Shown: one piece after another, positions 38,835 to 43,739 of the stretch
How positions within the stretch are numbered: position 1 is the first letter of the stretch
How the letters are laid out: each line of letters opens with the position of its first letter
Source: Escherichia coli
GTDB lineage: Bacteria > Pseudomonadota > Gammaproteobacteria > Enterobacterales > Enterobacteriaceae
Length of the DNA: 64,000 nt
Strand: one strand, 5' to 3'
NCBI RefSeq assembly: GCF_024502345.1
Contig: NZ_JALDNN010000001.1
Translations under genes and position numbers: made by a program
Notes under the pieces: generated by a model
The model's input: the letters and a program-made list of their open reading frames with translations, nothing else
Databases searched by the model: none
What the model was told of the DNA's origin: nothing

Positions 38835-40577
38835 ATGATAAAACCGACGTTTTTACGCCGGGTGGCCATTGCTGCTCTGCTCTCAGGAAGTTGTTTTAGC
38901 GCCGCCGCCGCGCCTCCTGCGCCGCCCGTCTCGTATGGTGTGGAGGAAGATGTCTTCCACCCGGTACGCGCGAAACAGGGAATGGTAGCGTCTGTGGACG
39001 CCACTGCCACTCAGGTGGGGGTGGATATTCTCAAGGAGGGCGGGAATGCCGTTGATGCCGCCGTGGCGGTGGGCTACGCGCTGGCGGTAACGCATCCGCA
39101 GGCAGGGAATCTGGGCGGTGGTGGTTTTATGTTAATCCGCTCGAAAAATGGCAATACCACGGCTATCGATTTCCGCGAAATGGCACCCGCCAAAGCGACC
39201 CGCGATATGTTCCTCGATGATCAGGGCAACCCGGACAGCAAAAAATCACTCACTTCGCATCTGGCTTCCGGCACACCGGGTACGGTAGCAGGTTTCTCGC
39301 TGGCGCTGGATAAATACGGCACCATGCCGCTGAACAAAGTCGTGCAGCCCGCGTTTAAACTGGCACGCGATGGTTTTATCGTTAACGACGCGCTGGCTGA
39401 CGATCTCAAAACCTACGGTAGCGAAGTGTTGCCGAATCACGAAAACAGTAAAGCTATCTTCTGGAAAGAGGGCGAGCCGCTGAAAAAGGGCGACACGCTG
39501 GTGCAGGCGAACCTGGCAAAGAGCCTGGAGATGATTGCTGAAAACGGCCCGGACGAATTCTATAAAGGCACGATTGCGGAACAGATCGCCCAGGAGATGC
39601 AGAAAAACGGTGGCTTGATCACTAAAGAAGATTTAGCGGCCTATAAAGCGGTCGAACGCACTCCGATAAGCGGCGATTATCGCGGGTATCAGGTTTACTC
39701 CATGCCACCGCCATCCTCCGGCGGGATCCATATCGTACAAATCCTCAATATTCTGGAAAACTTCGATATGAAGAAATACGGCTTTGGCAGCGCCGATGCG
39801 ATGCAAATCATGGCAGAAGCGGAGAAACACGCCTACGCCGACCGCTCGGAATATCTTGGCGACCCGGATTTTGTCAAAGTCCCGTGGCAGGCACTGACCA
39901 ATAAAGCCTATGCCAAATCCATTGCCGATCAAATTGATATCAACAAAGCGAAGCCGTCCAGTGAGATTCGCCCTGGCAAGCTTGCGCCTTATGAGAGTAA
40001 TCAAACTACCCATTACTCAGTGGTGGATAAAGATGGTAACGCGGTGGCGGTGACCTATACGCTGAACACCACCTTCGGTACGGGCATTGTCGCGGGCGAG
40101 AGCGGTATTCTGCTTAATAATCAGATGGATGATTTCTCCGCTAAACCGGGCGTACCGAACGTTTACGGGCTGGTGGGCGGTGATGCCAACGCCGTCGGGC
40201 CGAATAAACGTCCGCTGTCGTCAATGTCACCAACGATTGTGGTGAAAGACGGTAAAACCTGGCTGGTCACCGGTAGCCCTGGCGGGAGCCGGATCATCAC
40301 TACAGTGCTGCAAATGGTGGTGAATAGCATCGATTATGGCATGAACGTCGCCGAAGCGACCAATGCGCCGCGTTTCCACCATCAGTGGTTGCCGGACGAG
40401 CTGCGTGTCGAAAAAGGGTTTAGCCCGGATACGCTCAAGCTGCTGGAAGCAAAAGGTCAGAAAGTGGCGCTGAAAGAGGCGATGGGCAGTACACAAAGCA
40501 TTATGGTTGGGCCGGACGGTGAGTTGTACGGCGCATCCGACCCGCGCTCGGTGGATGATTTAACGGCGGGGTACTAA
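38835..40577 (+). CDS. ggt: Gamma-glutamyltranspeptidase Ggt
   Basis: Track ORF starts at 38808; ATG at 38835 (MIKPTFLRR...) gives 580 aa; autoprocessing-site Thr in the TTHYSVVD region. Confidence 0.95.
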   Translation: MIKPTFLRRVAIAALLSGSCFSAAAAPPAPPVSYGVEEDVFHPVRAKQGMVASVDATATQVGVDILKEGGNAVDAAVAVGYALAVTHPQAGNLGGGGFMLIRSKNGNTTAIDFREMAPAKATRDMFLDDQGNPDSKKSLTSHLASGTPGTVAGFSLALDKYGTMPLNKVVQPAFKLARDGFIVNDALADDLKTYGSEVLPNHENSKAIFWKEGEPLKKGDTLVQANLAKSLEMIAENGPDEFYKGTIAEQIAQEMQKNGGLITKEDLAAYKAVERTPISGDYRGYQVYSMPPPSSGGIHIVQILNILENFDMKKYGFGSADAMQIMAEAEKHAYADRSEYLGDPDFVKVPWQALTNKAYAKSIADQIDINKAKPSSEIRPGKLAPYESNQTTHYSVVDKDGNAVAVTYTLNTTFGTGIVAGESGILLNNQMDDFSAKPGVPNVYGLVGGDANAVGPNKRPLSSMSPTIVVKDGKTWLVTGSPGGSRIITTVLQMVVNSIDYGMNVAEATNAPRFHHQWLPDELRVEKGFSPDTLKLLEAKGQKVALKEAMGSTQSIMVGPDGELYGASDPRSVDDLTAGY

Positions 40578-40614
40578 GGTTAGCGGCCCTCTTCGTGGGA
40601 AGAGGGCTATTTTG

Positions 40615-40899
40615 TCAGGGCAAGCCGAAGGTAGCCTTTTTTATTTCGTAATCCTGTAGATATTCTTCCAGCGGCTTTGCCGTTCCCAGAGAATGAATTT
40701 CACCACTGTCTTTATCAATAATAAAAGGTGCGTTACCAGCTAAGCGCGCGGCCTCATCTCCAGTTTCGAGAAATTCTCGTGCTTCGAAACAGAAATACCA
40801 GCCCTGGCTAAAGCGTCCATGTAGAGTAATGACGACCGGGAGATCTGCATCATCAAGGTAATGGTTCGCTTTCGCGAATGCGTCGTGATAAGTAATCAT
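40615..40899 (-). CDS. yrhB: YrhB, small stable protein; putative immunity-like protein of the yhhZ cluster
   Basis: 94 aa; matches recalled K-12 YrhB. Confidence 0.85.
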   Translation of the reverse strand: MITYHDAFAKANHYLDDADLPVVITLHGRFSQGWYFCFEAREFLETGDEAARLAGNAPFIIDKDSGEIHSLGTAKPLEEYLQDYEIKKATFGLP

Positions 40900-41098
40900 A
40901 ATTATAATAAATATTATTGTTGAGTGTTATATTATTATTCCTGTGTGATACATTGAGCAAAGACGCGTTCATCTTCGTCAAAGATATTATTAAATGCTGG
41001 TTTTGAAAAAAGTTCATCGGATAAGATATAGTCACGAAATAAGTATCTGCTAATATTTTATGATTTCTTTTTCAGAACGTCGAACGGGATTTTCTTAT

Positions 41099-41254
41099 TT
41101 AAGATATCAGAATCTTATGATTCGGGTAAAATTCTAAATAAATCAACATGTCATTAAAATCATCATAGCCATTAGCTATTTCGGCTAAAATAGAGACTAC
41201 ATGTCTTCGGTCCATCTCACTTAAGGAGTGTAGTTCCGTTGTAAGTTTTTCCAT
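41099..41254 (-). CDS. Small 51-aa ORF between yrhB and yrhA (possibly the K-12 small protein YrhD)
   Basis: Not in the ORF track (below the length cut-off); ATG...TAA translating to MEKLTTELHSLSEMDRRHVVSILAEIANGYDDFNDMLIYLEFYPNHKILIS; same strand as yrhA/yrhB. Confidence 0.4.
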   Translation of the reverse strand: MEKLTTELHSLSEMDRRHVVSILAEIANGYDDFNDMLIYLEFYPNHKILIS

Positions 41255-41348
41255 AGCTTGCACTGCTAAATTTCGAACAAGGAATTTTCTGCTGGTAATC
41301 TCTAAAAAGATGGCATGGTTTACAATGATTTTTGTTTCCTTTTGATTA

Positions 41349-41843
41349 TTATGAACAACTGTCCATGATTTCGTTTAAGAATGAAGAGAAATCACTAAAC
41401 GAACTGAATATATTTTCTGTGCCAATATTATCTCTAATTTCAAAAAAGTTACTTTTAATGTCATAAGTAAATATTGAAATGCTATCATCCCCGATCACTA
41501 ACCGTTCTTGTAGATCAGGGTTTATGAAATCATCATTATTTCTATAAAATTCATTTACGGCAAAAAGGTTTTTAACTGAAGGTTCTGGAATCGAGAGGCT
41601 AAATAATCGTAATCCATTAACTTCGAATCCATCCATTGCTCTTAAAAAAGTAAGATAATCAGGTTGATTCTTAAAAAGAATACTAACTTCATTACATAAC
41701 TTCTCCAGGCAATTAGTTGAATTAGAATTAAATTCTATTTGGATTATACTTTCAATAAATGATTCCTTGAGCGGAGCTTCAAATGGATAGTCTAAATCAT
41801 TCATCATTTTTATTAATTTATTTATTTGGGTTTTAGTCATCAT
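41349..41843 (-). CDS. yrhA: YrhA, putative immunity protein for the YhhZ nuclease domain; intact here
   Basis: 164 aa; start overlaps the yhhZ stop (ATGA); no IS1 interruption in this window. Confidence 0.75.
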   Translation of the reverse strand: MMTKTQINKLIKMMNDLDYPFEAPLKESFIESIIQIEFNSNSTNCLEKLCNEVSILFKNQPDYLTFLRAMDGFEVNGLRLFSLSIPEPSVKNLFAVNEFYRNNDDFINPDLQERLVIGDDSISIFTYDIKSNFFEIRDNIGTENIFSSFSDFSSFLNEIMDSCS

Positions 41844-43018
41844 TTTGTGTGGTCCATAATATTTTTCATGGGAGGATAAATTGAGCCAGATGGAATGGCC
41901 CAGGGAGTGATTTTGCTTTCACCTACTAATATTCCCTTAGCTATTCGTGATTGCATGTTAGTAAAAACTTTATGATATGGTTCGTTTTCGATTAATACTA
42001 AATTTTCGAAATCATTAGTACCACCATCATCTAGAGATAGTTTATGGTGAACATTATAATTTAGAGGAGCATTGCCCTTTCTCATTCTTAAAAGGTCTTC
42101 GGCGTTGAATCTTCCAGATGCTTCGGAGGTTTTTGCAAGTTTGATAAGAAAATTTTTTCTTACAGTTTTATTAAACTCCTTTCGTAAGTTAGCTAAGTCT
42201 TTTGAAGGTCTCTTAATGTATATTATTTCTATTATGTCTATACCATCAAGAAGTTTTTGTTGACCTCTAAGTTTGCCTAAGTAACTATTTATTTCTGTAT
42301 ATGTATCAACATTAGAACGCTTTGTTAAAAGAATAGATGCTGTTGCTATCGCTATGCCCGCTGTTTTTTCATTTAGTATTTGATCATAGCCTTTTATTGC
42401 ATCTCCACCCAGTTTTTCCGCAGTATCTCTGAATCCTTCAATGTTCCCATTGTATACGCCACCAGCAGCAAGTAGCCTGCCAATAGCTTTGCTGTTTAAC
42501 GTTTTGAAACGATTATTTGTTTGGTTTTTTGAATTTGGTAAAAACAAACGGTTATAATTTTCAGGGAGTGCCAAATAGCTGAACTCGGTATTTGCGATAA
42601 GATGTTGACAGAGGATAAATTCATAACTAATAGTTATTGTTTCTGTATCCAGTTGGTTTTCAATGATCTGGTGATGAATAGCCGATAAAAAAGCGCCTCT
42701 TAGTTGTATATAATAATACTTTTCCAATCTACCAAATCTATTTATTCGATAGAAGTCAAATCCCATAAATAATTGTTCATTATTGTTAATGGAATTAATA
42801 AATAATGGAGTGCTTTTATCAATTAATTTACAAAATGTTATACCATGGAACTGTGAACCAAGCCCCGTATTATTAATATTATTTAAGAGTGAGAATGTAA
42901 ATATTTCATCCTCATGCCCGCTCTGCCAACGATTACCTGTAGACTCAGAAGTCCCACAACCTGCGGAGATGCTTCCTTGTTGTTCTCCCGTTACTGTCAG
43001 GTAAACAATATTACTCAT
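41840..43018 (-). CDS. yhhZ: YhhZ, Hcp-like N-terminal domain fused to a C-terminal HNH-type nuclease domain
   Basis: 392 aa; N-terminal VYLTVTGEQQGSI... Hcp-like pattern; C-terminal NYNVHHKLSLDDGGTNDFENLVLIENEPYH HNH motif; low-GC sequence. Confidence 0.85.
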   Translation of the reverse strand: MSNIVYLTVTGEQQGSISAGCGTSESTGNRWQSGHEDEIFTFSLLNNINNTGLGSQFHGITFCKLIDKSTPLFINSINNNEQLFMGFDFYRINRFGRLEKYYYIQLRGAFLSAIHHQIIENQLDTETITISYEFILCQHLIANTEFSYLALPENYNRLFLPNSKNQTNNRFKTLNSKAIGRLLAAGGVYNGNIEGFRDTAEKLGGDAIKGYDQILNEKTAGIAIATASILLTKRSNVDTYTEINSYLGKLRGQQKLLDGIDIIEIIYIKRPSKDLANLRKEFNKTVRKNFLIKLAKTSEASGRFNAEDLLRMRKGNAPLNYNVHHKLSLDDGGTNDFENLVLIENEPYHKVFTNMQSRIAKGILVGESKITPWAIPSGSIYPPMKNIMDHTK

Positions 43019-43250
43019 CCCTGAAAAGTCCTTTTATGGCATGCTATTTTATCAATGGCAATATTATGCTTGTTAATTGTTATTTATTTACTCCAGGAAA
43101 TTGTAGGCGTATATATTAAAAAAATATTACACTTTAGGAAGTAATTATGAGTTAAATCTCAATATATGTATTGGGCAAATAAATACCTTAAAGGAAGGTA
43201 TGTCGATTTTGAATGACACCCTTTTTCCATCTCAGAAAAAGGGCACTATC

Positions 43251-43739
43251 TTACTTCACCCGCGCCATATAATATGCATCGACATATTCACCATTACGCA
43301 ATGCGTACTTCTTACCAGTCCCTTCAATTTCAAAGCCGTATTTTTTATAGACCTTAATTGCCGGGGCGTTATCGACAAACACGGTTAGTTCAATGCGATC
43401 TACCCGCAACCAGTTGTCGCACATTTCAATCATCTCTCGCATCAGGGCGCTGGCGACGCCGCGGTTCTTCCAACGAGAGTCGACACAGATACCAAAATCG
43501 GCAACATGACTGCGGCGTGGGCGCTGTTGCACGTCAATGGTGAGATGGCCCACGACGTCTCCATCAATACAGGCGACGAGTTGCTTGATGCCGGGACGAT
43601 CGGCGAGTCGCTCCTGCCACATATGATCGGAAGGATGAGGCACCTGTAGTGTGTTGCAATACACCTCCGGCTGGGCGTGAATCTGCCTGATGGCCTCGTA
43701 ATCCCGTGTTTCTGCGTGGCGTATTACTATCTCACTCAT
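43251..43739 (-). CDS. yhhY: GNAT-family N-acetyltransferase YhhY
   Basis: Track ORF 43251..43817; internal ATG at 43739 (MSEIVIRHAETRDY...) gives 162 aa. Confidence 0.88.
   Translation of the reverse strand: MSEIVIRHAETRDYEAIRQIHAQPEVYCNTLQVPHPSDHMWQERLADRPGIKQLVACIDGDVVGHLTIDVQQRPRRSHVADFGICVDSRWKNRGVASALMREMIEMCDNWLRVDRIELTVFVDNAPAIKVYKKYGFEIEGTGKKYALRNGEYVDAYYMARVK

Follow-up and report, generated by a model that had tools for sequence, protein, structure and literature searches.

The closest described system to the locus considered here is the Hcp-ET1/ETI1 pair of Escherichia coli (Ma et al. 2017, Virulence 8:1189). According to reviews and a preprint dealing with that work, which name STEC004, O104:H4 C227-11, and 55989 as carriers, Hcp-ET1 is an HNH DNase which kills bacteria by DNA degradation, is delivered by a type VI secretion system (T6SS), T6SS-2, but not by T6SS-1, and is neutralised by ETI1, encoded downstream; the wording of these secondary sources is 'predicted HNH-DNase activity'. 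YhhZ of E. coli has been listed as an 'evolved Hcp' (2009) and in His-Me finger group 32 (2017). In this study, we analysed a 64-kb stretch of E. coli DNA (contig NZ_JALDNN010000001.1, hereafter the window), in which an AT-rich island of 2.67 kb between ggt and yhhY contains yhhZ, yrhA, the small open reading frame (ORF) yrhD, and yrhB. This island is very probably the E. coli Hcp-ET1/ETI1 effector-immunity cassette, represented by yhhZ and yrhA, accompanied by an orphan immunity gene, yrhB.

In E. coli 55989, a single such gene pair was found; it is located at yhhY-ggt and encodes a 392-aa protein and YrhA. YhhZ of the window is identical to its 55989 counterpart at 390/392 positions, with A300T and A317V relative to 55989, and YrhA at 163/164 positions, with one substitution, so that there is no real difference between the two. 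The exact sequences of all four window proteins are present in public data, that of YhhZ on 64 contigs, and RefSeq annotates the cassette as tssD / Hcp1-family effector, yrhA, yrhD, and yrhB. The yhhZ-yrhA island is already known, very common, and annotated in most E. coli genomes, and it carries little weight as a discovery, being a standard annotated feature whose toxin-immunity function was, according to the secondary sources, shown experimentally in 2017. Our additions are refinements and not a new kind of system: the predicted SUKH and colicin-DNase folds, a linker module, the assignment of yrhB as an orphan Imm35 gene with mapped junctions, and the frequencies of the states of the site.

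By sequence comparison, the N-terminal 147 residues of YhhZ are assigned as a complete T6SS tube subunit. NCBIfam TIGR03344 matches residues 1-147 (E 3.8e-34; 118 bits, the cutoff being 58.9; profile positions 1-161 of 167), Pfam T6SS_HCP (PF05638) matches residues 27-139 (E 2.5e-11), and the PDB Hcp chains 3he1, 6a2v, and 5mxn match with E values of 2e-11 to 3e-9. With a complete Hcp domain, a predicted toxin extension, and a predicted immunity gene directly downstream, YhhZ can be classified as a 'specialized' Hcp (Hcp-ET class). The Hcp domain is followed by a conserved linker module, which runs from KTLNSKAIGRLLAAGGVYNGNIEGFR to TAGIAIATASILL and has the consensus KTLNSKAIGRLLAAGGVYNGNIEGFR...GY.Q.LNEKT.G..IA.AS.L. 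From N175 to L230, its columns are invariant or nearly so across Hcp-HNH proteins, DUF8093-HNH proteins, proteins with two other N-terminal types, and Hcp-Gln_amidase proteins, and the module is also present in the compared loci L008, L009-L011, L016, and L017. It lies ahead of an HNH toxin in some proteins and of a Gln_amidase toxin in others, and the recombination junction described below falls within it. The linker has no Pfam match, is absent from Pectobacterium CdiA, and does not support a clear transmembrane helix, its peak hydropathy of 1.18 being too low.

The C-terminal domain of YhhZ is predicted to have the fold of the colicin/pyocin DNases. In the AlphaFold2 model of full-length YhhZ, the predicted local distance difference test (pLDDT) value of the Hcp half is <50, and the C-terminal domain alone was used; the Hcp half is unreliable, as N-terminal domains unrelated to each other were combined in the alignment. 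Over about residues 250-385, pLDDT is 83-96, and the best PDB matches of this domain in Foldseek are the DNase domains of pyocin S2, pyocin AP41, ColE7, and ColE9 (4qko, 4uhp, 1mz8, 1fsj; probability 1.00), with a root-mean-square deviation of 2.5-2.9 over ~80 columns. Furthermore, a profile of the toxin family searched against PDB matches pyocin S2 (E 0.0036) and ColE7 (E 0.008-0.011). The HNH segment aligns with pyocin S2 '...IHHKVRIADGGGVYNMGNLV', with the colicin-type motifs that precede and span the HH...N core in register. Among 38 homologues of 37-97% identity, H325 and H349 do not vary, and H324, N335, and N339 are kept in at least 90%. Sequence conservation and the predicted fold thus both suggest that the toxin domain is a DNase. 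All E. coli relatives of this toxin end retrieved by homology search fall into one family.

The likeness to colicins E7/E9 and pyocins S2/AP41 extends to the His-Me finger fold and the HH...N...H core motifs. Whereas these bacteriocins have receptor-binding and translocation domains and an 85-aa four-helix Im protein, YhhZ has an Hcp carrier and a 164-aa immunity protein predicted to be of SUKH type. Furthermore, the second His of their HxxxH pair is a Thr in YhhZ, and the island contains no lysis gene or further operon gene. A colicin/pyocin-type bacteriocin is ruled out by the Hcp N-terminus, the SUKH immunity protein, and the lack of a further operon gene.

YrhA matches its own NCBIfam family (NF038335, YrhA family; E 1.5e-36). 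YrhA alone has no match in Pfam, including all SUKH models, and its sequence search against PDB gave only noise. However, a profile search with the YrhA family retrieved 117 representatives among 1.84 billion proteins, and of the 77 profile relatives that were aligned, 30 match SMI1_KNR4 (SUKH-1), 21 match SUKH_6, and 16 match SUKH_5 (E<=0.001). The YrhA model (pLDDT 91) finds its four best PDB matches in 2icg, 2prv (two chains; B. subtilis YobK), and 3d5p (SMI1/KNR4 family), with probability 1.0 and TM scores of 0.44-0.58. Because part of its profile relatives match the SMI1_KNR4/SUKH families and its fold matches agree with them, YrhA is assigned, from sequence and model, to the SUKH immunity superfamily, of which it is a divergent member. 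Like the SUKH proteins YobK (2prv) and SMI1/KNR4 (3d5p, 2icg), it is encoded directly after a nuclease toxin, to judge from the predicted function of YhhZ, and has a similar predicted fold; unlike them, it scores in no SUKH Pfam model.

The pairing of YrhA with the HNH toxin end is seen in the genomic arrangement. The two genes overlap by 4 nt, the yrhA ATG and the yhhZ TGA being joined in ATGA. In Enterobacter, where the carrier is DUF8093 and the chromosomal site a different one, a YrhA-family gene, 59% identical to YrhA of the window, lies directly downstream of the toxin end, and in Citrobacter koseri, the same yhhY-ggt site contains an Hcp-HNH gene (73%) and yrhA (68%) but neither yrhD nor yrhB. 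Versions of the toxin end with 60-70% identity also occur in Enterobacter, Leclercia, Pantoea, Erwinia, and Serratia, where the carrier is not Hcp but PF26362/DUF8093 or other N-terminal domains. In every lineage examined, a YrhA-family gene follows the HNH toxin end irrespective of the N-terminal carrier. Since the YrhA partner tracks the toxin end whatever the carrier, the arrangement bears the signature of a polymorphic toxin with its immunity protein, and the assignment of yrhA as the coupled immunity gene of the YhhZ toxin is supported by these comparisons. The original prediction, made from the letters of the window alone, had taken yhhZ to be an Hcp-HNH fusion translationally coupled to yrhA in the layout of an effector with its immunity gene. 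The fusion is borne out by TIGR03344 and PF05638 for the Hcp part and by motif conservation and the predicted DNase fold for the C-terminal end, the coupling by the overlap, and the layout by the YrhA-family gene which trails the toxin end in E. coli, C. koseri, and Enterobacter.

In contrast to yrhA, yrhB appears to belong to a different toxin. YrhB has no NCBIfam match but matches Pfam Imm35 (PF15567) over profile positions 1-85 of 85 (E 4.6e-23), a family which has been associated with the papain-fold toxin Tox-PL1 (Zhang et al. 2012). In Pectobacterium, a YrhB homologue (70%) is encoded directly after a CdiA ending in Gln_amidase (PF15644), and in Escherichia fergusonii (83%, L022) and Citrobacter portucalensis (73%, L016), the homologue follows directly an Hcp-Gln_amidase gene at the same yhhY-ggt site. 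In the window, yrhB is separated from the upstream genes by yrhD and a ~200-bp spacer and does not directly follow a Gln_amidase toxin; no Gln_amidase remnant was found in the window. Likewise, blastn of the Gln_amidase-end DNA against complete E. coli genomes gave 11 divergent yrhB matches and no toxin. As the Gln_amidase toxin precedes YrhB homologues elsewhere and is absent from the window, yrhB, a gene also of K-12 which the sources consulted treat as uncharacterised or as a 'chaperone', is assignable to Imm35 as an orphan immunity gene with a predicted cognate toxin, Gln_amidase (Tox-PL1), carried by Hcp or CdiA. E. fergusonii and Citrobacter still have a cognate Hcp-Gln_amidase toxin at this site.

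The E. fergusonii and C. portucalensis cassettes, which probably correspond to the 'Hcp-ET5 papain-like' class of Ma et al., share with the island the site, the Hcp domain and linker, and a yrhB gene next to ggt. They differ in that their toxin is a papain-fold glutamine deamidase (PF15644) to which yrhB is directly coupled, whereas the window has the HNH end, yrhA, and yrhD in that place and an uncoupled yrhB. The Hcp and linker parts of the window and E. fergusonii proteins are 86% identical over residues 1-235, with 93.6% DNA identity over codons 1-219. Two blastn blocks define the junctions: L022 positions 435-1155 correspond to window positions 43082-42362 (93.6%), from 64 nt upstream of yhhZ to codon 219, and L022 positions 1645-2247 correspond to window positions 40903-40302 (90.9%), which begin 4 nt ahead of yrhB and extend into ggt. 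The DNA in between amounts to 1458 bp in the window and to 489 bp, encoding the Gln_amidase end, in E. fergusonii L022. In the simplest reading of these alignments, displacement of the toxin end on a conserved Hcp/linker carrier would have left yrhB orphaned. A similar pattern is known from the toxin-immunity displacement of Rhs and CdiA, where a conserved 5' carrier switches sharply to a toxin end with its immunity gene and an older immunity gene lies downstream. However, the carrier there is a large Rhs shell or a CdiA filament, whereas that of the island is a 150-residue Hcp, and no orphan toxin fragment is present in the window. The locus is thus a compact candidate case of toxin-end displacement on an Hcp carrier, which, together with the assignment of yrhB and the states of the site, could be of use in annotating orphan immunity genes and in predicting the resistance of strains to particular T6SS toxins.

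A mechanism can be drawn from the secondary-source reports on Hcp-ET1. In a strain with a compatible T6SS, reportedly T6SS-2, YhhZ would become part of the Hcp tube and be shot into an adjacent bacterium, whose DNA the nuclease would then degrade. The producer and its kin would be shielded by cytoplasmic YrhA, which presumably binds the nuclease and blocks it. As to the origin of the island, an older Hcp-Gln_amidase/yrhB cassette at the ggt-yhhY site was probably the starting state, in which the 3' end encoding the Gln_amidase toxin would have been replaced by an AT-rich HNH-end/yrhA(/yrhD) module via recombination in the conserved hcp/linker region. Stranded downstream by this event, yrhB may still protect against competitors armed with Gln_amidase.

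Several points weigh against the identification of the island as an Hcp-ET1/ETI1 cassette with an orphan immunity gene. The equation of Hcp-ET1 with YhhZ at ggt-yhhY relies on the secondary sources and on the 99% identity to the 55989 protein, with a small doubt on the locus tag AAF13_24945 (STEC004), and the direction of replacement, from Gln_amidase to HNH, is suggested by the orphan logic of an unrooted comparison. The cassette is carried by 69% of E. coli, including K-12, which has no T6SS and a truncated yrhA without apparent harm. An older paper called the YhhZ C-terminal domain 'degenerate'. The Pfam HNH match is weak (residues 322-343, E 0.015; Col-Pyo_DNase E 0.36), and T353 occupies the position of the second His of the colicin HxxxH pair, a metal-binding residue. 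The weak Pfam score and T353, together with the 'predicted' activity of the secondary sources, would suit a C-terminal domain which is not a DNase but a His-Me finger that has lost its activity or taken on another task, such as that of an RNase or DNA-binding module, with some other role for YrhA. Many active HNH enzymes have a single His after the Asn, however, and the invariance or near-invariance of H324, H325, N335, N339, and H349 among the 38 homologues, the fact that every fold match is a colicin/pyocin DNase, and the tightly linked SUKH partner, which is typical for nuclease toxins, make such a domain highly improbable.

The presence of the orphan cassette in T6SS-less strains might also be taken to indicate a T6SS-independent role, in which YhhZ-YrhA would act as an intracellular toxin-antitoxin pair, an abortive-infection-like module, or a biofilm or stress factor, with Hcp serving as a scaffold, as was suggested in 2009 for 'evolved Hcps'. 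We consider this very unlikely, since the Hcp domain is complete and scores above the TssD family cutoff, the toxin end is shared with other N-terminal domains, as with polymorphic secreted toxins, a truncated yrhA is tolerated in K-12, and T6SS-2-dependent delivery has been reported according to the secondary sources. None of YhhZ, YrhA, YrhD, and YrhB matches a PADLOC model (E<=0.1), and membership in an anti-phage defence or toxin-antitoxin system is therefore unsupported.

A question closer to the proposed mechanism is whether the cassette is used at all. In K-12, both yhhZ and yrhA have been reported to contain H-NS-bound 'promoter islands' tied to foreign DNA, which fits the tolerance of a truncated yrhA, and a recent study noted that promoters lie upstream of yhhZ and that the operon has no terminator along its length. 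The carriage of the cassette without a T6SS, the truncated yrhA, and the H-NS binding in K-12 suggest that it may be silent or undeliverable in many strains. It is possible, albeit less probable than the Hcp-ET1/ETI1 identification, that the island is a silent relic kept mainly for defence: the toxin would be unexpressed or undeliverable in most carriers, and perhaps in the strain of the window, either because H-NS silences it or because a compatible T6SS is lacking, and the cassette would persist through the protection that YrhA and YrhB give against the Hcp-HNH and Gln_amidase toxins of other E. coli, or simply by drift. The persistence of an intact yhhZ beside a truncated yrhA in K-12, the absence of T6SS genes nearby in the window, and the existence of yrhB-only sites, where an immunity gene is kept without a toxin, are consistent with this. 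However, a full-length yhhZ with intact catalytic residues is maintained in thousands of genomes (a cluster of 13190 members), which argues for selection on the toxin, and T6SS-2-dependent killing has been reported, again according to the secondary sources, for a 99%-identical protein. Silent carriage complements the Hcp-ET1/ETI1 identification more than it excludes it. We also consider it rather unlikely, albeit conceivable, that the linker is an undescribed functional domain, for toxin release from the tube or inner-membrane crossing, and at the same time a recombination platform for toxin/immunity swaps at ggt-yhhY in both Escherichia and Citrobacter; in that case, strains without a T6SS would have retained the cassette through selection on immunity and not on attack.

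Table 1. Coordinates of the island and its features in the window
Feature	Position	Strand	Remarks and evidence
Variable AT-rich island	40578..43250	.	ggt stop to yhhY stop; GC drop, empty-site alignment
yhhZ (Hcp-ET1 orthologue), 392 aa; Hcp carrier, linker, and predicted HNH DNase toxin	41840..43018	-	
Hcp (TssD) tube-protein domain, residues 1-147	42578..43018	-	TIGR03344, PF05638, PDB Hcp chains
Conserved linker module, residues ~172-235 (KTLNSKAIGRLLAAGGVYNGNIEGFR...TAGIAIATASILL)	42314..42505	-	Invariant/near-invariant columns
Predicted HNH (His-Me finger) toxin domain, colicin/pyocin DNase type, residues ~245-385	41864..42286	-	AlphaFold2, Foldseek, profile vs PDB
HNH motif H324-H325 ... 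N335/N339 ... H349	41972..42049	-	38-homologue alignment, pyocin S2 alignment
yrhA (ETI1 orthologue), 164 aa; predicted SUKH-superfamily immunity protein, cognate to HNH toxin	41349..41843	-	
yrhD, 51-aa ORF, ATG at 41254	41099..41254	-	Confined to E. coli island
yrhB, 94 aa, Imm35; predicted orphan immunity gene for Gln_amidase (Tox-PL1, papain-fold) toxin	40615..40899	-	
Putative displaced central segment (linker end, HNH end, yrhA, yrhD, spacer)	40904..42361	-	No E. fergusonii counterpart (blastn)
GC-rich terminator-like hairpin between convergent ggt and yrhB	40585..40608	.	10-pair stem, 6 GC pairs (terminator scan)

The features of the island are listed in Table 1. In composition, the island is foreign. 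Its GC content is 0.338 against 0.524 for the whole window, falling to 0.30-0.35 between 40800 and 43400 with flanks of 0.50-0.60, and GC at third codon positions is 0.26 for yhhZ, 0.24 for yrhA, 0.33 for yrhD, and 0.41 for yrhB, compared with 0.63 for the flanking ggt and 0.57 for yhhY. The GC content of yrhB (0.46) is higher than the 0.29-0.34 of yhhZ and yrhA, in line with the assignment of yrhB as an orphan gene. In an alignment with an empty site (ST131 genome, L004), homology is lost at 40577, at the ggt stop, and returns at 43252, at the yhhY stop. The original prediction had described an AT-rich island at 40580-43250, clearly lower in GC than ggt and yhhY; the composition agrees with this, and the alignment breakpoints indicate that its coordinates mark a genuine insertion/deletion polymorphism, being off by two bases at most. 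It had also noted that T6SS structural genes were lacking, and indeed none is found within the 64-kb window apart from the Hcp domain of YhhZ, the gene content being that of core genes (yhiI, rbbA, nik, zntA ... liv, ugp, ggt ... gnt, asd, glg). Its view of an uninterrupted downstream gene set holds in part: yrhA is an uninterrupted 164-aa gene here, unlike in K-12, and the set is intact, but it is not one unit, since yrhB would serve another toxin and yrhD is a small ORF confined to E. coli.

Promoter and terminator scans of the island gave site numbers no higher than in shuffled sequence. The hairpin between ggt and yrhB is kept in the O157:H7 allele of the site, where homology reaches 40613. 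The 25 kb of the window at 30000-54999 have a best match of 99.1% among 5426 complete E. coli genomes; the 3-kb island region by itself matches a bovine isolate at 99.9%, and the surrounding region may be mosaic.

YrhD is identical to K-12 YrhD and has no match in Pfam, NCBIfam, or PADLOC. The Citrobacter, Enterobacter, and E. fergusonii loci lack the gene. Two truncated alleles, of 38 and 41 aa, are widespread, with at least 1000 contigs for each, and the annotation of strain MS 69-1 lists the gene as a pseudogene; yrhD is probably not functional.

Some observations were made at related loci of other genera. In Enterobacter (L009-L011, positions 8001-9146), and in the proteins P0175, P0217, P0226, and P0236-P0240, the HNH toxin end is found on other carriers; in Enterobacter cloacae and Pantoea, these comprise DUF8093 (PF26362) and at least two unrelated N-terminal domains, in orphan two-gene modules. 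An identity of DUF8093 with the published PIX domain of T6SS cargo effectors found no support in the part of the PIX dataset that was covered, which does not list the accessions of these Enterobacter and Pantoea relatives and whose readable Enterobacter entries are different, 354-aa proteins. Two Enterobacter loci (L014 and L015, both at 6001-6273) have a lone yrhB/Imm35 homologue without adjacent toxin, located between nitrate-reductase-type genes and an epimerase gene, which would be a further orphan immunity gene in another genus. The C. portucalensis locus contains two extra genes, neither of which has a recorded Pfam match: one between yhhY and the Hcp gene (L016:3686-4570), whose 294-aa product has a hydrophobic N-terminus, VKKLFPLVLLASLSPAFA..., that looks signal-peptide-like by eye, and one of 83 aa after the Imm35 gene (L016:6302-6553).

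The occurrence of the cassette was counted by megablast against the same 5426 complete E. coli genomes. The full yhhZ-yrhA-yrhD-yrhB cassette is present in 3757 of these (69%), the site is empty, with a 61-bp junction, in 986 (18%), and 343 (6%) have a DUF4225 gene cassette of the O157:H7 type. The state of the site was left unassigned in ~6%, which include yrhB-only sites as seen in some E. coli (L020; megablast hit H22). Thus, the ggt-yhhY site has at least four states in E. coli. In K-12 derivatives, IS1 lies within yrhA, splitting the match in two and leaving a 138-aa YrhA fragment. Since the cassette is found in most of the genomes and the IS1 insertion of K-12 is the exception, the intact state seen here is the common one. 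In O157:H7 (L003:6215-8033), the same site holds a gene for a 303-aa DUF4225 protein, which is frameshifted in strain OkiPb01695, where an additional 138-aa hypothetical ORF is annotated; as for a yrhB remnant in the O157:H7 allele, a 44-bp DNA match of 75% was found at most, with no match at the protein level. The E. coli MS 69-1 lineage (L018:2855-4030) has a divergent allele of the cassette, in which YhhZ, YrhA, and YrhB are 93.9%, 98.2%, and 96.8% identical to those of the window; in this single comparison, the toxin gene varies more than its immunity gene.

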